NCBI GenBank assembly: GCA_023249645.1
Contig: JAHFCF010000006.1
Coordinates: 56,124 to 120,123 of the forward strand
Direction of reading: 5' to 3'
DNA from: Elusimicrobiota bacterium
GTDB lineage: Bacteria > Elusimicrobiota > Elusimicrobia > UBA1565 > UBA9628
DNA length: 64,000 bases
The notes under the pieces were generated by a model. It had not been told where the DNA came from and ran no database searches. It worked only from the letters and a program-made list of their open reading frames with translations. Positions 1,914 through 55,697 of the stretch are shown piece after piece (the first letter of the stretch is position 1; each line of letters starts with the position of its first letter). A program made the translations under genes and the position numbers.

Positions 1914-2486
1914 TCAAGTACGGGTCTTCAAGCGCAGGGACTTGAGCACAGACTCGAAAGCCGGCAGATCGTCCTTGTAATCCTGGCCCGCGGCCTTGAA
2001 TGCGAGCACGAGGAATCCTTGTTTCAAGGGCAGGATGACGCGGTCCTCGGTGATCAGCGCGTCGAAGGGGGGGAAGGCCGTGCCCGTGGGGATGTCCAGG
2101 GGTTCGATGCGGTGCTTGCGGGAGCTGACGATCCTCGTCGCCGCCCGGCCCGCGATCGTGATCATTCTGGGCTTGGAGACGCGCCAGGCCTTGTCCTGGC
2201 CCAATCGTGCCTGCAGCGTCAGGAGGTAGTCTTGCGCCCCGCTTTGATGGGGCAGGCGCGTGGGGCTGTATTCGTCTTCCGGATGCGTCTCGATGTGGAT
2301 GCCCGGCCGAAAGCCCCGGGTCTTTCCCGGACCCAGGAGACTGGCGAGGCCCTCTTCGACCGGCCCGACGATCCATGGGGCCGGCACGTCATAGGAATAG
2401 GGTGCGCCCTTCGGGCTCACGACAGCGGCCTGAGCCGCTCCGGCGAGGATCAGGACGGCCAGCCTAACGGATGCGGCAGGCAGCAT
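1914..2486 (-). CDS. Hypothetical secreted protein (N-terminal signal peptide)
   Basis: 190-aa ORF with a hydrophobic N-terminus (LAVLILAGAAQAAVV). It overlaps the stop of the upstream paralog gene by 23 nt. No recognisable domain. Confidence 0.45.
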   Translation of the reverse strand: MLPAASVRLAVLILAGAAQAAVVSPKGAPYSYDVPAPWIVGPVEEGLASLLGPGKTRGFRPGIHIETHPEDEYSPTRLPHQSGAQDYLLTLQARLGQDKAWRVSKPRMITIAGRAATRIVSSRKHRIEPLDIPTGTAFPPFDALITEDRVILPLKQGFLVLAFKAAGQDYKDDLPAFESVLKSLRLKTRT

Positions 2487-4197
2487 ATTCCCAGGTTAAA
2501 GGAGATTCCATCAGCATCTCGACCATGATCCTGTTTTTTTTGGCTTCATTGAGCTTGGGAGCCGCCAGCCGCATGGAGAGCTCATCATACTTGAGGCGCA
2601 TGTTCTGGATGCTTGGATCGCTTTTTTTGAGGGCTTCGCACTCCGCGTGTTTGGCGGACCGCCATTCATCATTGAGGTGGCGCGCCTCTTGGTCAAAGCG
2701 CTCATCGACGGCCAATTGCGCAAGCTTCTCCTCGTCCTTGTCTTGCCGAGCTGATTGCTTTTGCTGATCCAGCGTCACTTGGCCAGCCTGTATTTCCTTC
2801 TTTGGATCAGCGCCATAATACCTGGAAATGAGATCTGCTCGGAAATCAGCAGAGGAGTCTTGAAACTTGTGGAAAATGTCCATCTCTCCATCGGGAAGAA
2901 GGTGGCCGCGTTTTTCCTTGAGTGCGTCGATGGCTTTGCGGTCAGTCTCGATCTGCGAGGGTGCAAGAGGGGTTCCTGAACTCTGAAGATCCTCTTCGAG
3001 TGCTTGGATCTTTTCGTTTAATTCCTGCATTTTATTGGAATAATAACGGTACTCCATCATCCAGGCATAGGTTTCATTGGCGTATTCATTGGTTTTGGGG
3101 TATACATTGTTTCCTCCGCCATGGGATCTGACATGGACGTGGCCCGCTTCATGGAGGAATGTGGCCGCCAAACATTCAATGGAAAAACGTTCCTTGGAGA
3201 TGGCCTCGATCGGCCGGATGATGATTTTGTAGCGGACGGTGTAGTCTGCATTTCGGAGAAGCTGTCCGTTCTGGTCCTTGGCTGTCGTCGTGATCGCGAA
3301 GTTGGGCGATGCGGGGTCCCATTGGATGATGGTGTGATTGCTCGCTACGGCTTCGATGGCTCGCCGCGCATCGGCCAGGGCGATGAGGTCCGTGTGCGGC
3401 GGCCGGCCTGAATCCACGGGCACGGCATGGACGGCCTCCCGCATCAGGGCGAGGATGGAGGCGTCGTAGACCGTGGACAGGGAGTCGACCTGCTGGAGGA
3501 GTTGGGCCTTGATCTGGGCGGGCGTCTGGACTTCGAAAGGCGCATGATCGGATAGGAAGCTGGACTTAATCACCGGCCAGTCAACCGTGTTTTTTCGATC
3601 GGCGCCGTCGAAGTGCGCGGAGAGCAGATAGAAGGCATTCATGCTGGAGGCTTTGTCAATGCCGAGGGGTTGGGACATCCAGGCAGATTGAGCCAGATGC
3701 AGTCCGAATCTTTTGAGCGCCGCGTGCGCGCGCGCCAGGCGTTTCTGCAGGCGCTCTCTTTTGGCCCGGACCGGGAGGGCGGTCGCATCCGCGGCGTCGA
3801 TGATGAATCGCGCGGTCTGGGCCAGGGTGAGCTGCTCTTCGGGCTGGGACATGATGAACGCGACGCGCTTCATCCTCAGGTATTCTTCCGGCGAAAGGCC
3901 CGAGAGCGCTTGCTCGCAGGCGCGGCTCCAGTCTTTGTCCGTGAGGCCGATCGCCGGCGCTTCCTGCCGGTCATAGCGTTCCCGGCATTTTTCCTGCGCC
4001 ACGGCTAGGATGTCCGTGGAGAGCATGGTCCGGCATTGCCAGTCCCAGTCGGCTCGGGTCAGGCCGTAGGGGGCTTCGTAGGATTTCTTGTATCGGCTCG
4101 AGCATCCGGCGGGGTCGAACGGCTGCGCCCGCAGCGATGGCGCGGCCCAGAAGACTGCGAGAAGAAGAAAAAAGCGTTTAACGGATCCGGCAGGCAT
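2464..4197 (-). CDS. Secreted HExxH-motif protein, putative zinc metallopeptidase-like (paralog A of a tandem pair)
   Basis: 577 aa with signal peptide MPAGSVKRFFLLLAVFWAAPSLRAQ. Carries a duplicated N-terminal motif C..RY..x..Y.L.R..WD..C, an FLHEAGHVHV motif and a C-terminal EYAACRIR tail. Collinear with paralog B at HTDLIAL, NHTII, YYGADPKKE and ACRIR. Confidence 0.55.
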   Translation of the reverse strand: MPAGSVKRFFLLLAVFWAAPSLRAQPFDPAGCSSRYKKSYEAPYGLTRADWDWQCRTMLSTDILAVAQEKCRERYDRQEAPAIGLTDKDWSRACEQALSGLSPEEYLRMKRVAFIMSQPEEQLTLAQTARFIIDAADATALPVRAKRERLQKRLARAHAALKRFGLHLAQSAWMSQPLGIDKASSMNAFYLLSAHFDGADRKNTVDWPVIKSSFLSDHAPFEVQTPAQIKAQLLQQVDSLSTVYDASILALMREAVHAVPVDSGRPPHTDLIALADARRAIEAVASNHTIIQWDPASPNFAITTTAKDQNGQLLRNADYTVRYKIIIRPIEAISKERFSIECLAATFLHEAGHVHVRSHGGGNNVYPKTNEYANETYAWMMEYRYYSNKMQELNEKIQALEEDLQSSGTPLAPSQIETDRKAIDALKEKRGHLLPDGEMDIFHKFQDSSADFRADLISRYYGADPKKEIQAGQVTLDQQKQSARQDKDEEKLAQLAVDERFDQEARHLNDEWRSAKHAECEALKKSDPSIQNMRLKYDELSMRLAAPKLNEAKKNRIMVEMLMESPLTWEYAACRIR

Positions 4198-5959
4198 CGT
4201 AGCTCTCCATTAACTTGTTATAGGCGAGATTCAGTTGTGCCCCTCGTCGGTTGAGCGCGTTTTTTTGGGATTCCGATAGTCCGGGTTCATGGGTTCGGAT
4301 GACAATGATGTTGATCTTTTTTCTCAAGTCATTGACGACAGGATCGTTGATGAGCAGGGATCGGCATTCCTCTTTTTTGGCAGTGCGCCATTCTTGGTCG
4401 CGTTGGCGTGTTTCAGCTTCGAAGTCCTCATCCGTGGCCAGTTCTTTGAGCACGGCTGCGCTTTTGATGTCCAGCGCCCATTTTTTTTGCTGCAGGATCG
4501 TCACCTGGCCGGGAAAGATTTCATCTTCTTTGGGGTCAGTGCCATAGTAATCACGGATCATCTCTTCGCGAAACTCAGCAGGCGAGCTCTGGAATGTTTC
4601 CAGGCCGAGCATTTCGGTCTCTGGCATGAAATGGTCCCGCAGGCGTGTGAGCGCTGCAATGGTTTTTGTGAGGTGTTTGCGATCGACCCAAGTCAGAGGG
4701 CTTGGCGAATGGTCGAGATTTTGAGTCAGTCTTTTTATTTGTTCGTTGAACCTCTGGCGCTTGTTCGAGAAATAACGCGCTTCCATTTGATGGGCGTGTA
4801 TTTCATCCGTGTAATTGTTTTTTCCTCCTCCTTGAGCATTGAGATGCACATGGCCGCCGACTTCATGCAAAAGAACTCCAGCTAAAAATTCCAGCGGGTA
4901 ACGGCTCGTTGTGCAAGGCTCTCCGGGTTTGATGGATACTTGATAGCGCCAGGTGCCATCCGCGTTTTTTATCGCTGGGCGGGGTAGAGCTTTCTCTGGT
5001 TTATCTGATTCGGTGAACGTTGTGGCGTAGCTTTTTGATTTGCGGTTTAAAACGATGATGGTATGGTTTAAAATGATGGTTTCAATGGTGTCTTGGACAT
5101 CGGATAGGGCGATGAAGTCCGTGTGCGGCAGCAGCCCTGAGTTGATGGGCACGGAATCGACGAGTTCGCGCATCATGGCGATGATCAGGGGATCATAGGT
5201 CCGTCGGCCCTTTTCGTCTTTGAGCGTGTTCAGGGAGGATATTTGGGCCAGGAGACGAGTCTTGACTTGGAACGGGTCCGGGCGCGTCGGTGCGGCCAGG
5301 CGCGGGGCCGGGCGTTTGGACGCGAGAAAAATGGGGGAAAGCCTGGAGGGCGTCAGGCCGGCGTTGTCAAAGAAATGCGCTGCTTTCCGGTGGAATTCCT
5401 CCGAGGTCTTGGCTTGACCCATCTCGACGGGGAGCGCTCTCAAGTCCGACTCGGCCAAGGAATGTGAGAATCTTTGCCTGGCGGCTTCGGCTTGTTTGAG
5501 GCGGATATGCCACCGTGCCCTTTGTATCAGAATTTTTGGATCCTTCGAATCACTCGTGTCGAACATGAAATCGAAGACATCAGCCACGGTGATCTTATTG
5601 TCCGGCTTTGAGAGGAAACCCCGGATGCGCTGAGCCCGCAGGTATTGTTCCGGGGACACGAATTCCTTCTGCGCTTGATCGCAGTAATCGCGCTCCCACA
5701 TCTCCCTGGTCAGACCGATGTTCTTGCCCTCGTCAGGGTCGTATTTCGCCTTGCATATCTCCTGGGCGATGATCCGGATGTCCGCGGGGACCATCCCCTC
5801 TTCGCATTTGGAATCCCACTCCTCTCGGTTTAAGGAATAAGTCCGATAGGTGTCTTTATACCGTCGTTTGCAATCTTCGATATAGACGGGCGTGACCCCC
5901 CAGGCGCGCGGGGCCATGAGGATCGCGAGAAGGATCAAATAGCGCGCGTGGTTGTGCAT
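4178..5959 (-). CDS. Secreted HExxH-like-motif protein, paralog B of the tandem pair
   Basis: The ORF track gives 4178..6007. The start is more likely the ATG at 5959 (MHNHARYLILLAILMAPRAWG signal peptide, with an AGAGG RBS 10 nt upstream). Motifs: LLHEVGGHVHL, HTDFIAL, NHTII, YYGTDPKED, C-terminal SYDACRIR. Shares the N-terminal Cys-repeat module with paralog A. Confidence 0.55.
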   Translation of the reverse strand: MHNHARYLILLAILMAPRAWGVTPVYIEDCKRRYKDTYRTYSLNREEWDSKCEEGMVPADIRIIAQEICKAKYDPDEGKNIGLTREMWERDYCDQAQKEFVSPEQYLRAQRIRGFLSKPDNKITVADVFDFMFDTSDSKDPKILIQRARWHIRLKQAEAARQRFSHSLAESDLRALPVEMGQAKTSEEFHRKAAHFFDNAGLTPSRLSPIFLASKRPAPRLAAPTRPDPFQVKTRLLAQISSLNTLKDEKGRRTYDPLIIAMMRELVDSVPINSGLLPHTDFIALSDVQDTIETIILNHTIIVLNRKSKSYATTFTESDKPEKALPRPAIKNADGTWRYQVSIKPGEPCTTSRYPLEFLAGVLLHEVGGHVHLNAQGGGKNNYTDEIHAHQMEARYFSNKRQRFNEQIKRLTQNLDHSPSPLTWVDRKHLTKTIAALTRLRDHFMPETEMLGLETFQSSPAEFREEMIRDYYGTDPKEDEIFPGQVTILQQKKWALDIKSAAVLKELATDEDFEAETRQRDQEWRTAKKEECRSLLINDPVVNDLRKKINIIVIRTHEPGLSESQKNALNRRGAQLNLAYNKLMESYDACRIR

Positions 5960-6012
5960 GGAGAAGCCTCTATAAGGAAAGATAACAGAAGCAGTCACAT
6001 CGCGCATGAGCC

Positions 6013-9033: not shown

Positions 9034-9683
9034 TCATGCCCGCCATCCCCCGCATCCGATCCATCGATTTCCTCTCGCCGCAACCGGCCGACCCCAGTTC
9101 CGGAGAAGCCGAGATCAGGGTCACCCTGGAGGATGGAAGCTCGTCGGCTTTCGGCATCCTCACTCCCGACCGGGTGGCGCTGGGCATGGCTGAGGCGGGC
9201 AAGGATTACTCCTTCGGCTCGCCGACGCTTTTCCTCAAACGCTTGGACCAGGACTGCCTGGGCAAGGCGGCCGAGGCCATGGCCGGCCGCATGGGAGGGT
9301 TCTGGCTGAGGTATTACAACTCCAAGCCTCTGGCGGCCGGGCAGGTCAAGAAGCTGCGCGTGGGCTCCGTCGAGCTTTCCGACATCGAGCCGAAGAAGGG
9401 TCCGACCCATGGCAGCGCCGCGGTCCAGGTGAAGCTCTCGGATGAAAGGCAATTCTCCATCCTCGCGGCCACTCCCGGTTGGTTCGTGGAGGCCTTGGAT
9501 AAGCTCGGGCTGGAGTTCTATTTCGGCCCCTGCGTCCTTTTTCTGAGCTCCCTGCAGGCCGACCTGGCGCGTGCGGCCGTCGCCCAGATGATCAAGGGCG
9601 GCGACCAGCGCCTGTGCCGCTACGACACGCCGCGCCTGACCCTGCCGCAGGTCCTCGCCGACTTCAAGGCGAAGTCCGCCTAG
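9030..9683 (+). CDS. Hypothetical protein, third gene of the M28 operon
   Basis: 217-aa ORF whose TTG/ATG start overlaps the stop of the M28 gene. GC3-rich coding. No recognisable domain. Confidence 0.45.
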   Translation: MIMPAIPRIRSIDFLSPQPADPSSGEAEIRVTLEDGSSSAFGILTPDRVALGMAEAGKDYSFGSPTLFLKRLDQDCLGKAAEAMAGRMGGFWLRYYNSKPLAAGQVKKLRVGSVELSDIEPKKGPTHGSAAVQVKLSDERQFSILAATPGWFVEALDKLGLEFYFGPCVLFLSSLQADLARAAVAQMIKGGDQRLCRYDTPRLTLPQVLADFKAKSA

Positions 9684-9783
9684 GTCCTCGGTCCGCCAAA
9701 GGGCCTATTTCAAGCTAGGTCCAAAGACGGCTCTTTTCTGGGTCCAAAGGTCCAAGGCGGCTGGGAGGCCTTGTCGATATAAT
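9680..9783 (+). promoter_or_regulatory. Promoter region of the M48 protease gene: repeated (C/G)TAGGTCC and GGTCCAAAG motifs and a TATAAT -10 (9778-9783)
   Basis: Sequence ctaggtcctcggtccgccaaagggcctatttcaagctaggtccaaagacgg...gggtccaaaggtccaagg...gtcgaTATAATgg. ATG 9796 lies 13 nt after the -10, so the leader is short or absent. Confidence 0.4.
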
Positions 9784-9795
9784 GGTCTCATTATT

Positions 9796-12660
9796 ATGAT
9801 GAAGAAATTTCTCGCTTCCTTTATTGCCGCCGTCCTCATCGTGACCGCTCCCGGCCTTTCCTCGTATGCCGCGGCGGCAGGTGTTTTTGGGAAGTCATGG
9901 CCCATCGGTCCGGGAGGCAGGATCATCGGCCCGGTAGGCGGGCACATAGCCGTGTCTGCCCCTCAGAAGGATTTCCGTATTTTTTCTCTGGAGGCCGAGA
10001 GCCAGTATTCTCCAGCGCCTGGTTGGACTGATCAGGCGGCTTTTACGGGTCGACCTCTCCCAGCTGATCAGCCTTCTCATGAGCCGTTGAAGCGGATATT
10101 GTCAGGCCAGGTGACGCTCGCTACCCCTGATGCGCACAGGCCTGTGGCTGGACTGCGGACCTGGGCCGCTGATGCGATGGACCGCCTCTTAGGCCTGGCC
10201 CCGCAGCGCTCTGCGCCAGACGAGACCCGGGCGCTTGCTGATTCCCAGGAGCCGGCTCCAGCGGCTTCTGCCAAGTTGGGGAGATCATCTTCCCTTACCC
10301 CTGAACAAGCCCCTGAGCTTGCTCAGGTGCCTGCGCCGGTCTTTGAGTCCCGCACCATGATCGTGGTCCGCATCGGTGTCGTCGCCGGGGCCGTGGTCGG
10401 TCTGCAGGCCTTGCTGCCCGCGGCTTTGGGCGCGGTCTCCGTGGCCGCGGTCTGGGCCGTGAGCCCGGGGATATTCCTGTTGCCCGTCGCCCTTTACGCC
10501 CGCCATCGCCTCGCTGCGCGCGACTCGCCGCGCCTGAGCAGCGTCAAGCGGCTGATGGATGGAGCCGTCGGCGCGTTCATCGGCGCCGCCATCGTCGCCG
10601 GCGTCTTCGCTTCCCCGAGCCTAGGACTCCTCTTGGCCGTCAAGCAGCTCGCCTTTGCCGGCCTGCCTTTGGCCTCCCTGGCCGTGGGCCGCGCTCTGTC
10701 CAACGTGACGACCCTGCCTGATTCCGCCGGGACCTACGCGATTTTGGCCATCCTGCCGGGCCTCCTGGGCGCGACAGCGGCCGGTCCCATCGGCCTGGTG
10801 CCCGTGCTGGGAATGCTGGCGCTCGCCGCCATGACGACCATCTCCTTCTGCCTTGGCCGCATCATTGCCGCGGCTGAGTCGGGCAGGCCGTTCTCGGTCC
10901 CCGGCTCCATACAGAAGATGCGTTTCCCTGTCAGCCAGTGGGTCATGCTCGGTGTGATCTTCGCCACTTGGTCCGGGCTCAAGGAGGTCTATGCCAATCA
11001 GGTTTTTTGGGCGTGGCAGATCCTCGGGTCGAGGACCTTCGCGTGGCAGAAGGACGCTCCGCTCTGGAAGAACCTTGTCTACAATCTGGCCAACTTCAAC
11101 GTCCTCTATGCGGGGCTCCTGGCTTTCGTGATCGTGACATTTTTCATGGCCGGGGCTTTGAGCCCCCTGACCTTCCTGGCCTTGGCCTTCGCGCCTGAGC
11201 GAGCGGCTCTAGCGGCGGAGGCGCTCTTGGGCAAGCTTCTGCCCAAGTCCGAACCGGCGCCATCGACGGGCGTCGAGCCAGTGGCTGATCCCTCCACGAC
11301 GGCTGATGAGCCCGTGAAGCGGCCTCAGTTCCATTATTGGCTCAAGACCCTCTCGGCTGTCGCCTCCATCGCCGTCCTGGGCCTGTGCCTGGGGACTTGG
11401 GCGTATACCTGGAAGAACTTCGCCAAGACTTTCGGCATGGCTTCTCTGATGGCCATCGGGCAGTTTTTCGGCTCCAAATATCTCATCAAGCGCCTCATGA
11501 ACACGACTCCGGCCGATGAGAAGAATAAGGATGATCAGAAGGTCTTCGCTGTCCGCAACGATCTGATGCGGCGCATCAACGACGGCCGCGTGCGCAGGGG
11601 CAAGAAGCCCATCGACGACGCTCACCGGCCCGAGCTCGTGGATGATCCCAACCTTCTTCCCAACGCCTATGCCACGGGCTGGGGTCCTTCCCATGCTCTG
11701 ATCGGCGTGACCAAGGGCATCAAGCTGATGCTCTTGGATCCGGAGAATCTGCGCCAGGGGCTTTTGCGGCTCATGGCTTCCTGCGACGCGGAGACCAAGG
11801 CCTTCAAGCTCTTCCGGGCCGCCATCGCCGGCTCGCTGGGCAAGGACCGGATCCCGCCGGAGGCCTCGCCCTCGCAGGTGGCCGAGGCTGTCCAAAGCGC
11901 TCCTGCTGAGGCTCTCGATCTCCTGGGCGTGCGCGTCCTGCGCGGGGTGATGGCTCACGAGCTCAACCATGTGATGGATTGGCACATGGCGATCGGCGCG
12001 GCCGCCGGGGCTTTCACCTCGGCTCTGTCCATGGCGAGCTGGTCGGCCATGTGGCTCGTGGGAAAGTTCAAAGACCTGCCAAAAAAGCTGGAGGCTTGGG
12101 CCGCGGAGCCCCGGCCGTTCACTCCCATCGACCGGGTCAAGACCTGGGGGCTGCAGAGCGCCCAAGCCGTGGCTGAGCCCGTGTCCGTGGTCGTGGTCGG
12201 CGGGGCGATCGCGGTACTGGCCGTGATCAAGGCCTTCGCCATCGTCTGGGGGCCCCTGGCCGCCATTCTTTTGCAGATGGCTTCTTCGCGGGCTGATGAG
12301 GGCATGGCTGATGAGGACGGGGCCAAGCTGTCCGGTGATCCAGAAGCCCTGGGCCTGGGCTTGGGTCTGCTGATGACCTGGCAGCCGCCGAAAGGCTTTC
12401 AGGTGGATAACTTGGCGGTCATCGCGCTCAATGCGCACCGCTACACGGTCAATCCTCTCGAGCAGATGCGCAACGCCGGGGTCTTGCCCCGCTTAAGCCG
12501 CCTGGCCGAAGCGCTCGCGGGCGGCAGCGACGACTTCTTCTTCAACCTCTTCGTCACGCATCCGGACACTCTGCTGCGCATCATGCGGCTGCGCGACATG
12601 ATGTCGCGCATCGACAGGCTTTCCGGAAAGTCCGTCGATGCGGGGCGGCTCAAGCCATGA
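9796..12660 (+). CDS. M48-family (HtpX/Ste24-like) zinc metalloprotease with ~550-aa polytopic N-terminal membrane domain
   Basis: 954 aa with a signal peptide, then about 10 hydrophobic segments. The C-terminal half carries M48 motifs in canonical order: NAYATGWG (NAFATG-like), VMAHELNHVMDWH (HExxH) and FVTHPDTLLRI (HPxxxxRI). Confidence 0.65.
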   Translation: MMKKFLASFIAAVLIVTAPGLSSYAAAAGVFGKSWPIGPGGRIIGPVGGHIAVSAPQKDFRIFSLEAESQYSPAPGWTDQAAFTGRPLPADQPSHEPLKRILSGQVTLATPDAHRPVAGLRTWAADAMDRLLGLAPQRSAPDETRALADSQEPAPAASAKLGRSSSLTPEQAPELAQVPAPVFESRTMIVVRIGVVAGAVVGLQALLPAALGAVSVAAVWAVSPGIFLLPVALYARHRLAARDSPRLSSVKRLMDGAVGAFIGAAIVAGVFASPSLGLLLAVKQLAFAGLPLASLAVGRALSNVTTLPDSAGTYAILAILPGLLGATAAGPIGLVPVLGMLALAAMTTISFCLGRIIAAAESGRPFSVPGSIQKMRFPVSQWVMLGVIFATWSGLKEVYANQVFWAWQILGSRTFAWQKDAPLWKNLVYNLANFNVLYAGLLAFVIVTFFMAGALSPLTFLALAFAPERAALAAEALLGKLLPKSEPAPSTGVEPVADPSTTADEPVKRPQFHYWLKTLSAVASIAVLGLCLGTWAYTWKNFAKTFGMASLMAIGQFFGSKYLIKRLMNTTPADEKNKDDQKVFAVRNDLMRRINDGRVRRGKKPIDDAHRPELVDDPNLLPNAYATGWGPSHALIGVTKGIKLMLLDPENLRQGLLRLMASCDAETKAFKLFRAAIAGSLGKDRIPPEASPSQVAEAVQSAPAEALDLLGVRVLRGVMAHELNHVMDWHMAIGAAAGAFTSALSMASWSAMWLVGKFKDLPKKLEAWAAEPRPFTPIDRVKTWGLQSAQAVAEPVSVVVVGGAIAVLAVIKAFAIVWGPLAAILLQMASSRADEGMADEDGAKLSGDPEALGLGLGLLMTWQPPKGFQVDNLAVIALNAHRYTVNPLEQMRNAGVLPRLSRLAEALAGGSDDFFFNLFVTHPDTLLRIMRLRDMMSRIDRLSGKSVDAGRLKP

Positions 12661-12670
12661 CAACGCATTG

Positions 12671-20038: not shown

Positions 20039-20093
20039 GGGGTCAGGTCTTGACTTTTGACTAAGCTTCAGTCAAAAGTCAAGACCTGACCCC
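20039..20093. repeat. Perfect inverted repeat: 24-bp arms (GGGGTCAGGTCTTGACTTTTGACT / AGTCAAAAGTCAAGACCTGACCCC), 7-nt spacer
   Basis: Seen directly 1 nt after the lytM-like stop and ahead of the rpmE promoter. The right arm recurs at 56891-56917. Confidence 0.8.
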
Positions 20094-40354: not shown

Positions 40355-41686
40355 ATGACCCTGCGCAGAAAAAATCTTTGTGCCGTCATTCTGGCATGCT
40401 CCCTGACCGGGTGCGCGACACCCAAGCCCGCGGTGACTGTCTTCGAACTTGTTTCCAGGGCACCGGCGCAGCTGACGGCCCGTGAGGAATGCGTGGTCAA
40501 GAGCGTGATGCCGGGTTCGCCGGCCGCCCAGGGAGGGATCAGGGCGGGGGATGCCCTCACGGGGTTGAACCGGGACACCGCGCCTGCCGGGGATTTGAAT
40601 TTCGAGGCGTTCCTCTCCAGCCGCACGGGGCCGTTCCAAGTCGAACTCACGCGTCAGGGAAAGCCGCTGCAGCTGGATATCATGCACACGGAAGATCTTC
40701 ATCCTTTCGGGGTGACCTGCGATTTTGGCGACATCGAGGCCAGCCAGGACGAGGCGTTTGTGGCCATCAAGGGCTCGCTCGAGCTTCTGGTGCGCGCGGA
40801 AGTGATCGGTCCGGCGAGCTTCATCTGGGTCCGCCTTCAGAACCGCTCCACCAAGCCGCTCAAGGTCTCTCCGGATATGTTTTCGGCCTCGTCGGCGGAT
40901 TGGACGATCTTGAACCCCATCCGCTTCTCCGACATGGTCTCCTCTCTGCAGGCGATGGAGGTCTCGGGCCGCTTCGCGGGCAAGGGGGCTGAGTCAGCGA
41001 GCTATACCTTCGGCGTGGGCGACGCCCTCAGTCAGATCCCCAACATCATCCCCATCCCGGGAGCCGGCATGGGCGCCAACTTTCTTTTGAAGAACACGGG
41101 CCTGACGGACATGGTGAATGCTCAAACATCCTCCGTGACTTCCCTGCCCTTGGGAGAGGAGAACGGGCTCGGGCCGAGGTTCCGGGGCGCCAGCAAAGGA
41201 TTGGCGGCCACCTGGATCCCATCGAGCGGCAACGTGGACAGCGACCTGGCCGTGGCGGCCAACGAGATCATCCGCAGAAAACCCTTCCGGGAGACGGTGC
41301 TGACTCCGGGCTACGCCCAGGAAGGCTATCTGTATTTCGAGCAGCCGGACAAGCTGCCCTTGCGCCTGAGCCTAGATGCCGGCGAAGAGCATCTGGCGCT
41401 CCTCTTCGACGAGAAAAAATTCACGATGACCCCGCGGGAGCTGGCAGTCTACGCCCGGGGCGTCCCCGAGTTTTCGCACAAACAGGCGGTCCTGGCCGAC
41501 GGCCAGTTCTTCGAAGGGGAGATCGGCGCCTGGGATCGCATGGCGCACGGATTCAAGACCCGGATCCGCAAGAACGGCCAGGAAGTGAAAAGCAAACTGC
41601 TTCTTAAGGACATCCGGATCCTGAAGGTCGCGGGCCGCAACACCATCTTGGTGGCGGAGCCGCCCAAACCGGCGAAGCCTCAGTAG
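40355..41686 (+). CDS. Lipoprotein with PDZ domain
   Basis: Lipobox LTGCATP. PDZ-like VVKSVMPGSPAAQGGIRAGDALTGLN. The rest is unassigned. Confidence 0.6.
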   Translation: MTLRRKNLCAVILACSLTGCATPKPAVTVFELVSRAPAQLTAREECVVKSVMPGSPAAQGGIRAGDALTGLNRDTAPAGDLNFEAFLSSRTGPFQVELTRQGKPLQLDIMHTEDLHPFGVTCDFGDIEASQDEAFVAIKGSLELLVRAEVIGPASFIWVRLQNRSTKPLKVSPDMFSASSADWTILNPIRFSDMVSSLQAMEVSGRFAGKGAESASYTFGVGDALSQIPNIIPIPGAGMGANFLLKNTGLTDMVNAQTSSVTSLPLGEENGLGPRFRGASKGLAATWIPSSGNVDSDLAVAANEIIRRKPFRETVLTPGYAQEGYLYFEQPDKLPLRLSLDAGEEHLALLFDEKKFTMTPRELAVYARGVPEFSHKQAVLADGQFFEGEIGAWDRMAHGFKTRIRKNGQEVKSKLLLKDIRILKVAGRNTILVAEPPKPAKPQ

Positions 41687-41717
41687 CGGTAGTTGTCCGG
41701 CTTGTAGGGCCCATCGG
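41680..41717. repeat. Direct repeat, left copy: 38-nt duplicate of the ahcY 3' end (TCAGTAGCGGTAGTTGTCCGGCTTGTAGGGCCCATCGG)
   Basis: Identical to 42032-42069. It supplies the TAG stop of the PDZ lipoprotein gene. Confidence 0.85.
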
Positions 41718-42031
41718 CTGGCAGCATCCAACAGAGCTTTCAATGCGGTGCTGATCGCGCCGCATTGAAAGCAGCGCGTCCCCTTTCCGATGGGACGCGC
41801 AACAACGCAAAGGTCTTTAGAAATTCGACGCGAGTGAGGAATAGCTCTCGCGTCGGGCTTTCAGCCCCATGGAAAGCCATGGGACTGAAAGCTTTGGGAC
41901 AGAATCGTGTTCGGAGGATAGTTATCCACAAACTCTTCGCGCGAAGAGTCAGCGGAGGAACTTGGTACGCACCGAGTTGGTGGCAGTCACTCGCGCTTAA
42001 CTCGCCGCGCGGCGAGTCGGTGGATAAGTCT
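41718..42031. other. 314-bp hairpin-dense insert between the duplicated ahcY 3' ends; candidate structured ncRNA or miniature mobile-element remnant
   Basis: At least six consecutive non-identical stem-loops: gctttcaatgcgg/ccgcattgaaagc, gcgcgtccc/gggacgcgc, cgacgcgag/ctcgcgtcg, gctttcag..ccccatgg aaag ccatggg..ctgaaagc, ctcttcg/cgaagag, ctcgccg/cggcgag. No ORF. No tmRNA, RNase P or SRP signature. Confidence 0.4.
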
Positions 42032-42069
42032 TCAGTAGCGGTAGTTGTCCGGCTTGTAGGGCCCATCGG
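42032..42069. repeat. Direct repeat, right copy: the authentic 3' end of ahcY
   Basis: Identical 38 nt to 41680-41717. Encodes the conserved SAHH C-terminus ...[11 protein letters not shown]. Confidence 0.85.
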
Positions 42070-43354
42070 TCGGAATGCCTAGGTATTCCGACTGCTCTCG
42101 AGTCAGGCGCGTGAGCTGGGCGCCGAGCTTTCCCAGATGCAGGCGAGCCACCTTCTCATCCAGGAGCTTGGGCAGGGTGTAGACCTGGTTCTTGTATTTG
42201 CCCTTGCCGCGGTTGGTCCACAGCTCGATTTGAGCCATGGTCTGGTTGGTGAAGGAGGCGCTCATGACGAAGCTGGGGTGGCCCGAGGCGCAGCCGAGGT
42301 TGACCAGGCGCCCCTCGGCCAGCAGGGTCAGTCTCTTGCCGTTGGGCCAGACGAACTGGTCCACCTGCGGCTTGATGTTGACCCTCTGCAGCTTCGAATC
42401 GCTGGTCAGAGAGGCCACGTCGATCTCCAAGTCGAAATGACCGATGTTGCAGACGATGGCCTGGTCCTTCATGGCGTCCAAGTGCTTGCGGGTGATGATG
42501 TCCCGGCAGCCCGTGGCCGTGATGAAGATGTCGCCCAGGGCGGCGGCCTCGTCCATGAGCACGACCTGGTAGCCTTCCATGCAGGCCTGAAGAGCGTTGA
42601 TAGGGTCGATCTCGGTCACGAGCACGCGTGCCCCCATGCCGCGCAAAGACTGGCAGCAGCCCTTGCCCACGTCGCCGTAGCCGGCCACGACACAGGTCTT
42701 GCCCGCGATCATGACGTCGGTGGCGCGCTTGATGCCGTCCAAAAGCGATTCCCGGCAGCCGTAGAGGTTGTCGAACTTCGACTTGGTGGTCGAATCATTC
42801 ACGTTGATGGCCGGGCACTTCAAGGTGCCGGCGGCCTGGCGCTGATAGAGCCGGTGCACGCCCGTGGTCGTCTCCTCGGAGAGGCCGATGATGTCCTTGA
42901 AGAGCTCGGGCTTCTGGTCATGGATCATGTTGGTCAGATCCCCGCCGTCGTCCAAAAGCAGCGTGGGGCCCAGGCCCTTGGGCCAAACGAGGGTCTGCTC
43001 GATGCACCAGTCGTATTCCTTTAAAGTCTCGCCCTTCCAGGCGAAGACAGGGACTCCGGCCTTGGCCACGGCGGCCGCCGCGTGGTCCTGGGTCGAGAAG
43101 ATGTTGCAGGAGCTCCAGCGCACGGAGGCTCCGAGCTCGACGAGGGTCTCGATCAAGACCGCGGTCTCGATGGTCATGTGCAGGCAGCCGGCGATGCGGG
43201 CGCCTTCCAGCGGCTTTTTGCCGCGGTATTCCTCGCGCAGGGCGCTTAAGCCCGGCATCTCGTATTGCGCGATGGTGATCTCTTTGCGGCCCCAATCGGC
43301 GAGACTGATGTCTTTGACTTTATAATCCATGGTGGAGGTGGTCATGTGCCTCAT
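42032..43354 (-). CDS. ahcY: Adenosylhomocysteinase (S-adenosyl-L-homocysteine hydrolase)
   Basis: NAD-binding motif ([15 protein letters not shown]). Conserved C-terminal KPDNYRY. 440 aa. Confidence 0.95.
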
Positions 43355-49876: not shown

Positions 49877-50491
49877 ATGCGTATGAGAGGAACTCCTATG
49901 AAAAAGATCCGAGCCAGACTTGTTGCCATCGCGCTCTTGGCTAGTCCCGCGCCGCTTCTAGCGAAAGACGGGGGAGGCCTGGCTGCCGTCAAGAATAAGG
50001 CGGCCCGATTCTTCCAAGGAGCGGATGCCACCGCCAAGGAGACGTTCCAGAAAGCGGCTGAGGAACAAGCCCGCAGCGGCGCTCAGGATCAGGCGGCGAT
50101 CGCGGCGAGCGACGAGGCGCAAGACATGCTCAATCTGCGAAGGCGTGCTCTGGCCCAGTTGGCGTCTCGGCATGTGGATGCTGGTGAGCTGACCAAGGGG
50201 CCTGACATGGACGAGATGCAGATCATCTACGGCAACAGCCCGCCGGTGGCCGCTCCTGCGGATTCCAGGCTCAATAAGTTATTCGTCGCGGAGATGGCAG
50301 GCCGCCGCCGAGTGAACATGTCCGAGAACCGGGCGACGTGTTTTTATGCTGAGACCAAGGATCACGCCTACAAGATCGTCCTGAACGATTTATTGGAGAG
50401 GAATTGGCAGGCGGCTTCAGATGCTCTTGTGAGGATTTCTCATTCAGACACCGTGGAGCGTGTGTCGCTGACCAAAAAGGTCGCGCCCTAG
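49877..50491 (+). CDS. Hypothetical secreted protein
   Basis: 204 aa. GGAGG RBS. Signal peptide (MKKIRARLVAIALLASPAPLLA from the internal ATG 49898). Its TAG stop lies inside the duplicated purQ 3'-end copy. Confidence 0.45.
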   Translation: MRMRGTPMKKIRARLVAIALLASPAPLLAKDGGGLAAVKNKAARFFQGADATAKETFQKAAEEQARSGAQDQAAIAASDEAQDMLNLRRRALAQLASRHVDAGELTKGPDMDEMQIIYGNSPPVAAPADSRLNKLFVAEMAGRRRVNMSENRATCFYAETKDHAYKIVLNDLLERNWQAASDALVRISHSDTVERVSLTKKVAP

Positions 50492-50513
50492 CTCCGGCAG
50501 TATTCCACCGCGT
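50489..50513. repeat. Direct repeat, left copy: duplicate of the purQ 3' end (TAGCTCCGGCAGTATTCCACCGCGT)
   Basis: 24 of 25 nt identical to 50670-50694. A 156-bp insert (50514-50669) with a ttcgga/tccgaa stem-loop lies between the copies. Confidence 0.8.
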
Positions 50514-50668
50514 CCGGGTTGGGCTTTATGATCATTGAAGGTCGTGGCGCAGCTGAGCCAGGGGGATGGCCTCGACGTAACTTCCCAGTGGATATCCTTT
50601 TGTGCCGCATGAAATTTCGGATTAATACTCCGAATTTTCATTGAGAAGGCAAGCGGGTCTTTGAGGCC

Positions 50669-51445
50669 TTAGCCCCGGCAGTATTCCACCGCGTTGCGCA
50701 GCATCTCCAGGCCCACGGCCTGCTTGGCGAAAGTCTGGCGCGTCCAGTTGGGATGCTGGAAGGGCGTCGTGTAGCGCTCCGGATGCGGCATCATGCCCAG
50801 GCAGTTGCCCTCGGGATTGGAGAGGGCCGCGATGTTGAAGACCGAGCCGTCGGGATTGGCCGGATAGTCCGCCAGCTTGCCGTCGTCCGAGACGTACTGC
50901 ATGGCGATGGACTTGTTCTTCTTGAGCTCCTCGAGTTGGCGGGGGGATTTCAAGACCAGCTTGCCCTCGCCGTGCGCGACCGGCAGCTCGATCATCTCGG
51001 GCAGGCCCTTGAAGAAGAGGCACGAGCTCTGCGTGTTGAGCCTCAAGTGCACCCAGCGCGTCTCGAAGCGCCCGGAGTCGTTGGCCGTGAAGGATGCCGT
51101 CTGCTCGCCGGAATGCATGAGGGGCAGCGCCCCGGTCTTGACCAGGGCCTGGAAGCCGTTGGAGATGCCCAGCACCGGGCGGCTCAAGCGCACGAACTGG
51201 CGCAGCTCCTTGACGTAGAGCTTGAGCTGGTTGGCCAGGATCTTTCCCGCGGCCACGTCGTCGCCGTAGGAGAAGCCGCCCGGCAGGACCAGGATGTCGT
51301 AGTCCAACAGATGAACCTTGCCCGCTTTAAGGAGATTGATGTGCACGCGCTCGGGCGCGCCGCCAACGGATGAGAAGGCCTCGGCGGTCTCCGCGTCGCA
51401 ATTCGTTCCCGGAGCGCGCAGGACGAGGACCTTGGGCCTCTTCAT
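50669..51445 (-). CDS. purQ: Phosphoribosylformylglycinamidine synthase subunit PurQ (glutaminase)
   Basis: Class I glutamine amidotransferase: LPGGFSYGDD, catalytic SNGFQAL, HPER. ATG 51445 overlaps the purL stop. Confidence 0.9.
   Translation of the reverse strand: MKRPKVLVLRAPGTNCDAETAEAFSSVGGAPERVHINLLKAGKVHLLDYDILVLPGGFSYGDDVAAGKILANQLKLYVKELRQFVRLSRPVLGISNGFQALVKTGALPLMHSGEQTASFTANDSGRFETRWVHLRLNTQSSCLFFKGLPEMIELPVAHGEGKLVLKSPRQLEELKKNKSIAMQYVSDDGKLADYPANPDGSVFNIAALSNPEGNCLGMMPHPERYTTPFQHPNWTRQTFAKQAVGLEMLRNAVEYCRG
50670..50694. repeat. Direct repeat, right copy: the authentic purQ 3' end
   Basis: Encodes ...NAVEYCRG* of PurQ on the minus strand. Confidence 0.8.
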
Positions 51446-53601
51446 CCCAGCCTCCGCGGCAGGACTTCCTGCCAGGCGGTCTTCAATTCTGCGAGGTCTG
51501 CTTCCATGCACACGCAGCCGTCCAGGCCCATGACCTTGAGCACCGGGTTGGCCACGGTGGTGCCCACGCGCTTGACCGCCGCGCCGCGCAGGGCCTTGAG
51601 GAAGGCCGCCTCGCGCTCCGGCGCGACCTCGAGGAGCAGGCGGCTGGCGCTCTCCGAGAAGAGAAGGACCTCGTCCGAGTAGATGGGCGCGCGGCGCGGG
51701 ACCTTGTCCAGATCGAGGATGGCGCCGAATTCTCCGGAGAATCCCATCTGGGCGGCGCAGACCCCGAGGCCTCCGGCGGCCAGATCGTGAGCGGAGAGGA
51801 CCAGGCCTTTGGTCATAGCTGCGTATACGGCTTTGAACGCAGCTATGGCCGAGCGCGGATCGACGGACGGGACGCTGCAGCTCCAGCAGCGTCCGCAGAT
51901 CTCGTGGAAAAGAGAGGCGCCGAGCTCCTCCGCGGTTGAACCCACGAGGTAGAGGGCGTTGCCCGGGCCTTTGATATCCATGGTCAGGGCCTTTCGCGCG
52001 TCGGCGACAGGAGCCAACGCGCTCACGAGCAGGGTGTCAGGGCTTTGGGTTCGGAGGCTGAGCTTCGCTGACAACAGCGGCACGCCGTATCCCTGGGCGG
52101 CGCTGCGCAGGCCGAGCGCCGCGCTGACCAAGGCGCCGAGCCTGGCCGGATTGTCGCTGCTGCCGACGAGGTTGGCGCAGAAGGCCGCGCGCGAGACGTC
52201 CGCGCCGACGCAGAGGAGGTTGCGCAGGGCTTCATCCGCGCAGGCCATGGCCATGCGGCCGGGGTGGGACTTGCCATAGGCCGGGTTGAGGCCGTGGCTC
52301 GCCGCGAAGCCGCGCCAATCCTTGGGATCTGCGGCCGGCCGGACCACGCAGGCGTCTCCCGGGCCGTCATGGCGCACGCCTTGCAGCGGCTTGATGAGGA
52401 CGCCCGCCTGCGCCTCGTGATCGTACTGGCGGATGATCCATTCGCGGCTGCAGACGCTCGCATGGGTGAGGCACTCTTTGAGGATGTGGGCGAGGGTCTT
52501 CTTGTGGCCGGGTGCTTTGGCGGGCGCTGGTTTGGCGGTTTGCCAGACCGCCCTCTGTTCAATGGCGGGGCGGCCTTCGAGCAAGAAGCGCATGTCGAGG
52601 CTGATCGCGGGCTCATGATCGAAGAAAGCCTCCAGTCGGCCGGTGGACGTGATCTCTCCTAGGACAGCCGTTTCGCAATCCTCGGAGGCGAAGAGCTCCT
52701 CGAAGGCCCTGCGCTTGGGCGCCGGCACCACGAAGACCATGCGCTCTCCTCCCTCGGAAAGCCAGATCTCCCAGGGCTTCATGTCCGCGGAGAGCTGCGG
52801 GACCTTTCCAAGGTCGATCTTGGCTCCCCGGCCGCTGGCCAGGCGCAGGATGGCCGATGCCAAGCCGCCCGTGGAGCAGAAGACCTGTCCGCGGTGGAGT
52901 TTTTTGTCGCGGGCCGCCAGCAGAGCGTCTAAGAGCTTTTTGGTGTTGAGAGGATGCGAGAGCTTGACCTCGGGGTCCGAGGCATCTCGGTCCGTGCGGC
53001 TGCCGGCGACCAGGAGGAGGTCTCCCGGTTTGGCCTTCTCTGCGGATCTGCCCGAGGGCAAGAAGCCCACGGTGCCGCAGAGGATGAGGGGGTCCTGGCG
53101 ATGCGCTTCGTCGAGCCACAGGGCCCCCGAGGCCATGGGCACGCCGAGACGGTTGGTGTAGTCCCGCGCGCCCAAGACCGATTCCTGCAGGATGCGGCGC
53201 GAGGGAAGGTCGTCTGGCGGGGCGCAGAAGAAAGCGGTGGTGGCGAGCACGGGCTTGGCTCCCAGGTCCGTGGAGAGGGCTTGGCCGATGGCCGAGCCCA
53301 TCGCGGCTTGGGCCGCGCCGTAAGGCTCGACCGCACAGGGAGATTGGCAAGCCTCGACCGCAAAGGTCAGCGACCCGCGGCCGAAAGGCAGGAAGCCTTC
53401 GGCCGGTTCGAAGAGATCCTTGATCAGGATGGTCTTTTTTCCGTCGTTGTAGCGGATGGGGCCCAGAGCGTCGCGGCGCTTCTGCGACCAGACTTGTGAG
53501 ATGGTTTTGAGCTCGGCCAAGGTCGGCGCGCGTTTCAAGGCCTTGAAATGCGCCTGGATGGCGGCGAGTTCTTCCGTGGTCGGGGCGGTCGTCTCGGACA
53601 T
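51442..53601 (-). CDS. purL: Phosphoribosylformylglycinamidine synthase subunit PurL
   Basis: 719 aa with duplicated AIRS-like domains of the PurL/PurM superfamily. Confidence 0.9.
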   Translation of the reverse strand: MSETTAPTTEELAAIQAHFKALKRAPTLAELKTISQVWSQKRRDALGPIRYNDGKKTILIKDLFEPAEGFLPFGRGSLTFAVEACQSPCAVEPYGAAQAAMGSAIGQALSTDLGAKPVLATTAFFCAPPDDLPSRRILQESVLGARDYTNRLGVPMASGALWLDEAHRQDPLILCGTVGFLPSGRSAEKAKPGDLLLVAGSRTDRDASDPEVKLSHPLNTKKLLDALLAARDKKLHRGQVFCSTGGLASAILRLASGRGAKIDLGKVPQLSADMKPWEIWLSEGGERMVFVVPAPKRRAFEELFASEDCETAVLGEITSTGRLEAFFDHEPAISLDMRFLLEGRPAIEQRAVWQTAKPAPAKAPGHKKTLAHILKECLTHASVCSREWIIRQYDHEAQAGVLIKPLQGVRHDGPGDACVVRPAADPKDWRGFAASHGLNPAYGKSHPGRMAMACADEALRNLLCVGADVSRAAFCANLVGSSDNPARLGALVSAALGLRSAAQGYGVPLLSAKLSLRTQSPDTLLVSALAPVADARKALTMDIKGPGNALYLVGSTAEELGASLFHEICGRCWSCSVPSVDPRSAIAAFKAVYAAMTKGLVLSAHDLAAGGLGVCAAQMGFSGEFGAILDLDKVPRRAPIYSDEVLLFSESASRLLLEVAPEREAAFLKALRGAAVKRVGTTVANPVLKVMGLDGCVCMEADLAELKTAWQEVLPRRLG

Positions 53602-54282: not shown

Positions 54283-54356
54283 ACCGATCGATTGCGGGAT
54301 GGTGAAATGGTATCACGGGTGGCTCTGAACCACTTATTCTAGGTTCGAATCCTAGT
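54283..54356 (+). tRNA. tRNA-Gln (anticodon CUG)
   Basis: Folded by hand. Acceptor TGCGGGA/TCCCGCA with U1-A72 and G73 (Gln identity). D-arm GTGA/TCAC. Anticodon stem GGTGG/CCACT with loop CTCTGAA. T-arm CTAGG-TTCGAAT-CCTAG. CCA encoded. Confidence 0.85.
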
Positions 54357-54386
54357 CCCGCAGCCACTTTAGTCGTTATAAGGACT

Positions 54387-54413
54387 GCTGAACAAAAAGC
54401 CCTCCGAAAGGAG
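54387..54413 (+). terminator. Rho-independent terminator after tRNA-Gln
   Basis: Sequence AGCCCTCC gaaa GGAGGGCT followed by TTTTTTG. Confidence 0.8.
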
Positions 54414-54434
54414 GGCTTTTTTGTATCATTATTC

Positions 54435-55697
54435 ATGTTTCGGTTCGCGTTGGGCCTCGCGCTTCTCTTCCCGTTGATCGGCTGCTCCGGCACGCAGCTA
54501 CGGGAGGAGGAACGCCAACCTGTCCGCCTCGATATCGGGCTCATGCCCCTCCTCAGCAGCGGCGCTCCCGTTGAGCCGAAAGACACCGACACCCTCATCG
54601 CGCGGCTCCAAGCCATGAGCATCTTCGATTCGGTCCGCTCGGTCGACTCGTCACACTCTCCCGATGTCGATCTGGTTCTTGCGCTGGAGGCGCACCTGGC
54701 CTCGGTGTCTCTGCGCATCTATGGAGCGGCTTCCCAGGAACAACTCTACGTCGGGAAGCTCCGGATGGACTGGAACGCCGATTACGGCATCAATGCCGTC
54801 TATGTGGCGCGGGAAATCATCGGGAAGTTCGGCCCCGGAACGCCGGAATTCAAAAAACTCATCGCCGCCCGCGCGACGCGTCCCGCGCGGCAAGCGCCCG
54901 GTCTCGAAACCCCCCATCTGTTCCAATCGGACATCGACCGGCCGGGCTACCGCATGGCCGAACACCCCGACGATTTCGCCCTTGTCGTGGGGGTCGAGAA
55001 GTATTCGGACCTGCCGGAGGCCCGGTTCGCTGGACGTGACGCTGAGGCGGCCAAGGACCACTTGCTGGCTCTTGGCTTCCCGAGCCGGAACATCGTCCAA
55101 TTGAGCGACGACAAGGCCGGCTACAAGAGCATCGAAAAATATCTGGAAACCTGGCTGCCCCGGAACAGCAACGAGAACAGCCGCGTCTTCTTCTACTTCT
55201 CGGGCCATGGCGCCCCGGATGTGCGGACTGGGCAGGCATATCTTCTCCCCTGGGACGGAGACCCGGGCTTCCTGGAGACAACCGGCTATCCGGTCAAGCG
55301 TCTCTATGAGAAATTGTCCACGCTCAAGGCCAAAGAGGTCATCGTGGCTTTAGACGCCTGCTTCTCGGGGGCGGGCGGACGGTCGGTCCTGGCCAAAGGG
55401 GCTCGGCCTTTGGTTATGAAGGTGGACACCGCGACAGCGCCTCAAAACCTGACCGTGTTCGCAGCGGCCTCGGGCGAACAAATCACCAGCACGCTCGAAG
55501 ACCAGGGGCACGGGACCTTCACCTACTACTTCCTGAAAGGCTTGAGTGGTGGAGCCAAGGACGCCTCCGGACGGGTCACGACGCAGGCCCTTTACGACTA
55601 CCTCAAGCCCAAGGTGCAGGACGCGGCCCGGCGGCAGAACCGAGACCAGGAGCCGGTCCTGCACGGCCAAGGCGACCGGGAACTCGTTCGGTTCTGA
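54435..55697 (+). CDS. Caspase-like (peptidase C14 family) lipoprotein
   Basis: Lipobox LIGCSG. C14 catalytic dyad context: FFYFSGHGAPD (His) and VALDACFSGAGG (Cys). 420 aa. Confidence 0.65.
   Translation: MFRFALGLALLFPLIGCSGTQLREEERQPVRLDIGLMPLLSSGAPVEPKDTDTLIARLQAMSIFDSVRSVDSSHSPDVDLVLALEAHLASVSLRIYGAASQEQLYVGKLRMDWNADYGINAVYVAREIIGKFGPGTPEFKKLIAARATRPARQAPGLETPHLFQSDIDRPGYRMAEHPDDFALVVGVEKYSDLPEARFAGRDAEAAKDHLLALGFPSRNIVQLSDDKAGYKSIEKYLETWLPRNSNENSRVFFYFSGHGAPDVRTGQAYLLPWDGDPGFLETTGYPVKRLYEKLSTLKAKEVIVALDACFSGAGGRSVLAKGARPLVMKVDTATAPQNLTVFAAASGEQITSTLEDQGHGTFTYYFLKGLSGGAKDASGRVTTQALYDYLKPKVQDAARRQNRDQEPVLHGQGDRELVRF

Follow-up and report, generated by a model that had tools for sequence, protein, structure and literature searches.

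Introduction

Protein-coding genes are known to serve as attachment (att) sites for integrating elements; e14 and phage 21 use icd in this way, and ICESt3 uses fda. Experiments in E. coli have shown that linear DNA, once trimmed, can circularise and integrate through a single crossover, so that the homologous segment becomes directly duplicated (PMC3240628); displacement by homology-facilitated illegitimate recombination, leaving orphaned 3' regions, has been proposed for type VI secretion system (T6SS) and Rhs loci (PMC5361080). REPINs, which are doublets of inverted repetitive extragenic palindromic (REP) units, represent a non-autonomous form of mobile DNA (PMC3337134). Here we describe a 64,000-nt stretch of the genome of an Elusimicrobiota bacterium (GenBank assembly GCA_023249645.1, contig JAHFCF010000006.1, positions 56,124 to 120,123 of the forward strand; hereafter, the window), in which the last 38 nt of ahcY, the adenosylhomocysteinase gene, occur twice as exact direct repeats on either side of a hairpin-rich insert.

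We tentatively interpret this repeat as a one-step recombination scar, that is, an orphan ahcY tail produced by general or short-homology recombination without a dedicated integrase, and we place the probability of this interpretation at roughly 0.45. The first-pass annotation of the locus had instead proposed a site-specific integration into the 3' end of ahcY, of which only a remnant persists.

Results

Duplication of the ahcY end

The two 38-mers (TCAGTAGCGGTAGTTGTCCGGCTTGTAGGGCCCATCGG) are identical at all 38 positions, start 352 nt apart and enclose 314 bp, in agreement with the first-pass annotation; their identity breaks off abruptly at both edges, and the number of exact 38-mer repeats expected by chance in 64 kb is ~3e-14. 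The right copy is the functional end of ahcY and the left copy is an orphan tail (Table 1). The annotation had also correctly recognised that the second copy supplies the stop codon of a convergent gene encoding a PDZ-domain lipoprotein: the TAG at 41684-41686, which corresponds to plus-strand nt 5-7 of the orphan tail, terminates the PDZ gene.

The duplicated arrangement is genuine and did not arise in assembly. In an independent ENA assembly of this organism, the PDZ gene and ahcY are likewise separated by a 345-nt gap, and a Logan contig built with k=31, which is 100% identical to the window, ends within the left 38-mer, where a true repeat exceeding k would be expected to interrupt it. Where the window has a single 443-aa ORF for the PDZ gene, the ENA assembly (ERZ27297709) shows two ORFs, of 178 aa and 250 aa; the split reflects either a population frameshift variant or an assembly error.

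The best database relatives of the AhcY protein are Elusimicrobiota AhcY proteins, which are at most 91% identical to it. The ahcY tails of relatives match the window tail at only 27-33 of the 38 positions, although the encoded peptide is nearly unchanged; the 38/38 identity within the window therefore indicates either a recent duplication or a conspecific source.

A second duplicated gene end

A window-wide repeat search revealed a 29-nt repeat (27/29 identical, copies 181 nt apart) at the end of a purQ-like gene located 9 kb from the ahcY scar. In both cases, the orphan tail adjoins a convergent, lineage-specific gene for an exported protein, which lies outside the repeats and is absent in relatives, and the repeat edge falls at the stop codon of the conserved gene, 0 nt beyond it at ahcY and 3 nt beyond it at purQ. 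The convergent gene at purQ, ORF204, produced only a self-match in the homolog search. The G+C content at third codon positions is 0.81 in the PDZ gene and 0.68 in the ORF204 gene, versus 0.88 for the neighbouring genes. In a relative (L107; the 112 fetched loci are designated by L numbers), purQ is followed 8 nt on by an xdh-like gene, without ORF204.

A Logan contig covers the whole region of the purQ scar at 100% identity. Each purQ tail copy is one base off the state inferred from the relative (GGCTAG), and the purQ scar therefore fits an older event. The spacer between the purQ tails is not unusually structured (z -0.9) and is unrelated to the ahcY insert.

A systematic scan, which included a mismatch-tolerant pass, identified these two orphan-tail events as the only ones in the window, and no orphan tails of this geometry were found in the other 1.57 Mb of loci. 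Three further candidates for tail duplication were set aside: L029 contains tandem paralogs, L039 a tandem repeat, and L031 has a different geometry. At L031:560-820, from a metagenome-assembled genome labelled Planctomycetota whose AhcY is 78% identical, the final ~39 nt of an ORF encoding 481 aa (…KRKLEKMNKKRNRR*) recur 222 nt downstream, past a small membrane-like ORF; this may be a further gene-tail duplication, tandem and not convergent.

The locus in relatives

In the window, ahcY is syntenic with the YaeQ and MscS genes, as in relatives. In a relative with 89% AhcY identity (L003-L006), the order is YaeQ, MscS, ahcY and, after 14 nt, a DEAD helicase gene, followed by hyp223, DsbA, MauE and further genes. 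The helicase gene is absent from the window, where its place is taken by the insert, the orphan tail and, in reverse orientation, the PDZ gene, followed by the same hyp223-DsbA block. In the closest relative with available DNA (L007), ~1.5 kb (4096-5606) and ~5.8 kb (6811-12663) of extra DNA flank the DEAD-box helicase gene, which confirms that gene content changes at a hotspot downstream of ahcY. Further relatives carry quite different genes downstream of ahcY, and in the closest relative by AhcY identity (91%), a convergent ORF overlaps ahcY by 7 nt.

Judging from these gene orders, the DNA directly after the ahcY stop is a variable slot bounded by conserved genes; both positions are such slots, since relatives lack the convergent genes at ahcY (L004, L007) and at purQ (L107). 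The empty-site comparison that had been suggested for this locus returned no true empty site, with ahcY directly followed by the PDZ gene, among the relatives. Occupied sites were likewise missing: at the 84 other ahcY loci, neither the insert nor a duplicate of the gene's own tail (>14 nt, within 10 kb) was present.

The PDZ protein has only three database homologs, of which the two complete ones are 57-59% identical. The genes of these two adjoin rubredoxin and BcrAD genes and not ahcY, and the PDZ gene of the window extends 8 codons beyond the ends of its complete homologs, up to the TAG in the orphan tail.

Structure and content of the insert

The insert folds far more stably than its shuffled versions (z -8.1 for the plus strand and -9.9 for the minus strand). 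Of the 16 perfect stems of ≥9 bp in the window, 3 lie in the insert, together with three imperfect or loop-less hairpins. The foot GCTTTCA…TGAAAGC is common to hairpins H1 and H4, and CGCGTC to H2 and H3. No inverted repeat relates the two ends of the insert, CTGGCAGC… and …GGATAAGTCT.

The uniqueness of the insert, another point raised by the first-pass annotation, holds only for the unit as a whole. The window contains no second copy, and the 112 fetched loci show no similarity to the 314-bp unit or to H1-H4; yet a REP-like palindrome of ~40 nt lies inside the insert and does recur among these loci. No similarity to phage or plasmid records was detected, the only plasmid matches being the ahcY tails of Streptomyces, and the ORFs of the insert had zero family matches in Pfam and PHROG.

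Four other identities of the insert were considered and rejected. Against Rfam 15, the insert region had no match, the top hit being FinP with 22 bits versus a 45-bit threshold (E=0.09), and a known structured RNA was ruled out. A scan found no intrinsic terminators inside the insert, and native terminators of the window (e.g., 54394-54421) look different. A decayed tandem duplication of the PDZ 3' end and a remnant of the DEAD-box gene were both dismissed for lack of similarity.

A dispersed REP-like palindrome

The last 106 nt of the insert (41922-42027) constitute a REPIN-like doublet of two inverted units, A and B, separated by a 50-nt spacer. The unit consensus is TTATCCAC-NN-ACTC-NN-CGCGCG-NN-GAGT, and units A and B differ at positions where the inner pairing remains intact (TT/AA versus GC/GC). 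When a metagenome collection was scanned with a degenerate unit pattern with 22 fixed bases, 20 contigs (L087-L106; e.g., L094:3424-3461 and L105:1037-1074) matched. Most of these contain a single 38-42-nt palindrome, AGTTATCCACAAACTCGTCGCGCGACGAGTTTGTGGATAACT, within otherwise unrelated intergenic DNA; it can also be written as (AG)TTATCCACAAACTCGTCGCGCGACGAGTTTGTGGATAA(CT), and similarity between loci is confined to ~40 nt. In at least 6 of the 20 loci, the palindrome lies at most 12 nt from the stop codon of a converging ORF. The variable dinucleotides are complementary in 20/22 independent sites and occur in 5 different combinations; therefore, the symmetry of the hairpin appears to be maintained, beyond sequence alone. 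Half forms and forms with large interiors were observed in L090, L095, L101 and L102, and some loci (L101, L102) contain clusters.

The palindrome is absent from the rest of the 64-kb window and from 92 of the 112 fetched loci (~1.5 Mb), including all ahcY loci of relatives, and duplicated gene tails do not flank the palindrome sites elsewhere. No credible tblastn match to a gene of the REP-associated tyrosine transposase (RAYT) or IS200-like type was found in the window or in the palindrome loci, which is a weak test with the YafM and IS200 TnpA queries used. The word TTATCCACAAACTC had no match in the literature. The palindrome behaves like a REP-type element, and the doublet in the window is REPIN-like as defined in PMC3337134; the family, REP-like with a DnaA-box-like word, is previously undescribed.

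Several of the palindrome loci have features of their own. Upstream of an amino-acid-permease-like gene, L102:875-1342 contains tandem copies (~80% identical) of a ~280-300-nt unit whose first part is the palindrome. This unit, in which a long-range hairpin, GTTCTCGGGTGAGC…GCTCACCCGAGAAT, is conserved, has no Rfam match and may be either a composite repeat or a regulatory leader. In L099:5697-5724 and L088:322-349, the palindrome follows a gene for bacterial RNase P RNA at a distance of ~65 nt, and in L095 it adjoins two tRNA genes. The palindrome-bearing contigs are high in GC and environmental, and L097 and L087 encode proteins similar to those of the window. A chromosomal origin, which the DnaA-box-like motifs might have indicated, was ruled out; there is no switch in GC skew, and the only motifs are one perfect box and its inverted 8-mer partner.

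Other features of the window

The coordinates of the features at both scars are collected in Table 1. Elsewhere in the window, the longest hairpin is a perfect one of 55 nt with a 24-bp stem (GGGGTCAGGTCTTGACTTTTGACT…) at 20039-20093, just past an ORF ending at 20037. A 101-nt direct repeat, 76% identical (3369-3469 and 5098-5198), lies within the overlapping minus-strand ORFs 2464..4197 and 4178..6007; these ORFs, in a stretch of lower GC (54-59%), are likely to be tandem paralogs. The region 54293-55697 contains a tRNA-Gln gene with a textbook terminator (54394-54421), followed in order by genes for a caspase-domain (Peptidase_C14) protein and a phytochelatin-synthase-like protein. A tRNA-linked island was ruled out here, as the gene beside tRNA-Gln (54293-54366) encodes the caspase-domain protein and not an integrase.

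Table 1. Positions in the window of the features at the ahcY and purQ scars.
Feature	Position	Strand	Description
PDZ-domain lipoprotein gene	40355..41686	+	lineage-specific; convergent on ahcY; PDZ domain and lipoprotein signal
Orphan ahcY tail (left repeat copy)	41680..41717	-	38/38 identical to right copy
Insert	41718..42031		314 bp; GC 56% vs 62% for the window
Hairpin H1	41736..41772		16-bp stem with one G·T
Hairpin H2	41774..41800		perfect 9-bp stem GCGCGTCCC/GGGACGCGC
Hairpin H3	41826..41855		perfect 9-bp stem CGACGCGAG/CTCGCGTCG
Hairpin H4	41857..41892		8+7-bp stem with one symmetric mismatch
Palindrome unit A	41922..41949	+	TTATCCAC-AA-ACTCTTCGCGCGAAGAGT; opens with perfect DnaA-box-like 9-mer TTATCCACA
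Spacer between inverted units	41950..41999		50 nt
Palindrome unit B	42000..42027	-	TTATCCAC-CG-ACTCGCCGCGCGGCGAGT; begins 4 nt after the ahcY stop
Functional ahcY tail (right repeat copy)	42032..42069	-	stop TGA (42032-42034), last 11 codons and 2 nt
ahcY, adenosylhomocysteinase	42032..43354	-	conserved; syntenic with YaeQ and MscS genes in relatives
ORF204 gene	49877..50491	+	204-aa signal-peptide protein; convergent; ends in orphan purQ tail
Orphan purQ tail	50485..50513	-	27/29 identical; TAG 50489-50491 at nt 5-7
Spacer of the purQ case	50514..50665		152 bp; GC 51%; one AT-rich hairpin
Functional purQ tail	50666..50694	-	stop TAA and last codons of the GATase_5/purQ-like gene 50669..51511 (-)

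Discussion

A proposed one-step recombination scar

The reading that we favour would require two arrangements of the ahcY locus. In the first, the ahcY tail and its stop would be followed by a hairpin-rich flank of their own; in the second, the PDZ lipoprotein gene would converge on ahcY and overlap its stop by 7 nt. The first would have been joined to the second in a single step, with the joint 38 nt inside ahcY, and this would be topologically equivalent to the insertion of a 352-bp piece (the 314 bp plus one tail) by a crossover within the shared 38 nt. Such a joint may have arisen when a trimmed, circularised fragment integrated by a single crossover in the short shared tail, or when sister haplotypes exchanged a segment and an illegitimate joint formed 38 nt within ahcY, as in homology-facilitated illegitimate recombination. 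The 314 bp would be intergenic DNA of REP-like palindromes, the last doublet of which would occupy the family's usual place just after a stop codon.

A single event for both the duplication and the insertion is suggested because the edges are sharp and no ahcY-derived bases follow the functional stop. The position of the repeat edge at the stop in the two scars (0 and 3 nt) would similarly be explained because two arrangements that share only the conserved gene diverge there. We infer that general or short-homology recombination, and not a dedicated integrase, performed the joining. The first-pass annotation had taken a duplicated gene end around an insert as the footprint of integration; the topology it proposed stands, since a crossover in a shared stretch fits the locus. 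A dedicated integrase would produce this topology too, but the locus offers no support for one: there is no recombinase in the annotated part of the window, no cargo and no related occupied site, two unrelated cores lie within 9 kb, and the new genes are outside the repeats.

In the AhcY family, the conserved C-terminal tail touches the cofactor site of the adjacent subunit. The repeat appears to preserve this tail, and the present effect of the arrangement would be that the essential C-terminus of AhcY stays intact and that two convergent genes, which would otherwise overlap, are kept apart by the insert.

Four observations weigh against a recombination scar. Neither parental arrangement was recovered: no genome was found in which the PDZ gene overlaps ahcY, and none in which this 314-bp flank follows ahcY. 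Homologies of 29-38 nt lie at or below the usual minimum for a RecA-type crossover, whereas the documented duplications measure 109-950 bp (PMC3240628), and no microhomology is visible at the joint of the 38-mer. Finally, the hairpin density of the insert, which far exceeds that of the other intergenic regions of the window, is not required by the scar model and could indicate structured mobile DNA.

Alternative explanations

The alternative that survives best, although we regard it as unlikely, is the entry of a tyrosine-integrase element whose attP contained the last 38 nt of ahcY into the 3' end of the gene, generating attL and attR, and its later deletion down to 314 bp. Exact direct repeats that contain the gene end and restore the reading frame are found at tRNA and protein-gene att sites, the repeat edge at the stop is also what an attP mimicking the gene tail would produce, and the insert is unlike the neighbouring DNA in its lower GC. 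However, the annotated genes at 34-58 kb of the window, which reach about 7-16 kb out from the repeats, include no integrase, transposase, excisionase, phage or other mobile-element gene, and tblastn with XerD and lambda Int returned nothing in the window. The claim that the 314 bp are the remnant of an ahcY-targeting element found no support, and it largely fails by the refuting outcome named in the first-pass annotation, an insert that is unique and without relation to mobile elements. The coding content of the insert is nil, with no ORF matching Pfam or PHROG, and the core and the insert lack phage, plasmid and viral matches; the ahcY tail is also absent from viral contigs. The lineage-specific genes lie outside the repeats and not between them, where cargo would be expected, and the unrelated tail scar 9 kb away would demand a second integrase and a second near-total deletion. 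We found no literature linking adenosylhomocysteinase with an integrase, an attB site or genomic islands.

A little less probable again, in our estimation, is that the 352-bp unit is a tiny, non-autonomous, hairpin-only mobile DNA, which, in circular or single-stranded form, enters a gene within its final 30-40 nt, brings a replacement tail and is moved in trans by an HUH/RAYT-like or Xer-like enzyme. The extreme self-complementarity of the insert on both strands favours such a unit, as do the REPIN-like doublet at its end, which belongs to a dispersed palindrome with a maintained hairpin, the clusters of palindrome units with variable interiors in L101 and L102, and the fact that REPINs are known non-autonomous mobile DNA (PMC3337134). 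Yet only the ~40-nt palindrome is found elsewhere, never the 314-bp unit or H1-H4, and its other sites are free of flanking duplicated gene tails; moreover, the spacer of the purQ scar is unrelated and unstructured, and no RAYT or IS200-like gene was found in the window and the palindrome loci in what was a weak test. No duplication of flanking or target DNA is known for insertions of the REP or REP/IS200 type. More speculatively, and with a somewhat slimmer chance of being correct, the 352-bp unit might belong, possibly together with the 181-bp unit at purQ, to an unrecognised class of gene-less integrative hairpin DNA moved by a trans-acting enzyme that reads folded DNA, in which the TTATCCAC-hairpin palindrome would be the recognition module.

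A two-step history, in which slippage first duplicated 38 nt of the overlapping ahcY and PDZ ends in tandem and REP-like hairpins then colonised the junction, seems to us improbable, more so than any of the preceding schemes. A duplication spanning both stops, as here, would be neutral for both proteins, REP-like elements gather at gene ends, and the insert looks modular. Nevertheless, the first insertion would have to hit the junction of the copies exactly in both cases, for which the joint estimate is ~1 in 700; no ahcY-derived bases are present past the functional stop, random slippage offers no reason for left edges at 0 and 3 nt from the stop, and H1-H4 are not seen as dispersed elements.

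Off-target integration of the Cas1 or CRISPR (clustered regularly interspaced short palindromic repeats) kind was ruled out, as the two duplications are of unequal length and neither insert has the size of a spacer. A false assembly loop through a 38-mer common to co-existing strains is scarcely credible: the source is a metagenome-assembled genome and the k=31 assembly breaks at the repeat, but the independent ENA assembly has the same 345-nt gap, sister contigs of the ERZ272x/ERZ273x series (L108 and L111, which are not the gap-carrying contig) are named k141, suggesting k=141, far above 38 nt, with spanning reads needed, and the two copies at the purQ scar are mismatched, with a Logan contig running across the scar.

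Implications

If the scar reading is true, orphan tails are precise footprints of accessory genes that were slotted in beside conserved genes in this uncultured lineage of Elusimicrobiota, and the join falls inside the conserved gene, a few dozen bases at most from its end, with the duplicated end saving an essential C-terminus. The presence of two footprints in 64 kb, when the remaining 1.57 Mb of loci show no footprint of the same geometry, suggests that here the process is more active than usual or has left better-preserved traces. Scans of genomes for orphan tails might provide a cheap way of dating and mapping the turnover of gene content.

Comparison with known systems

The ahcY locus resembles the attL/attR pairs of 3'-end-targeting elements in that a direct repeat holds the end of a conserved gene, the gene remains intact and one edge coincides with the gene end. 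It departs from these systems in having no recombinase, no cargo and no related occupied sites, in the second, unrelated scar nearby and in the location of the new genes outside the repeats. A more general similarity, that of direct repeats of target DNA around an insert, is shared with transposons, miniature inverted-repeat transposable elements, casposons and Cas1-Cas2 off-target duplications; unlike the short duplications of DDE transposons (2-15 bp), those described here measure 38 and 29 nt and follow no fixed ruler, and the insert has no terminal inverted repeats and is not spacer-sized.

The last 106 nt of the insert are comparable to REP and REPIN sequences with their RAYTs (PMC3337134, PMC3116915), with which they share an inverted doublet of motif plus hairpin, an extragenic position near gene ends, dispersal and compensatory pairing. 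In contrast to these, which number tens to hundreds per genome, the copy number looks low (none in the rest of the window or in the other ~1.5 Mb of fetched loci), no RAYT was found, although the test was weak, and in place of the GTAG of REPs the conserved motif reads TTATCCAC(A), which is a perfect DnaA-box-like word.

Single-crossover and illegitimate recombination share their overall logic with the two scars: foreign or sister-strain DNA is joined at a conserved anchor, a piece of the 3' end is duplicated or orphaned, and the slot is variable. In contrast to the single-crossover cases of E. coli (109-950 bp; PMC3240628), only 29-38 nt are duplicated here and the parental arrangements were not observed, and the orphan tips of Rhs/T6SS loci (PMC5361080) are long and accompanied by immunity genes, unlike the ahcY and purQ tails. 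The ahcY locus is best classed as a further case of something already known, namely a scar of insertion or recombination in which the end of a gene is duplicated.

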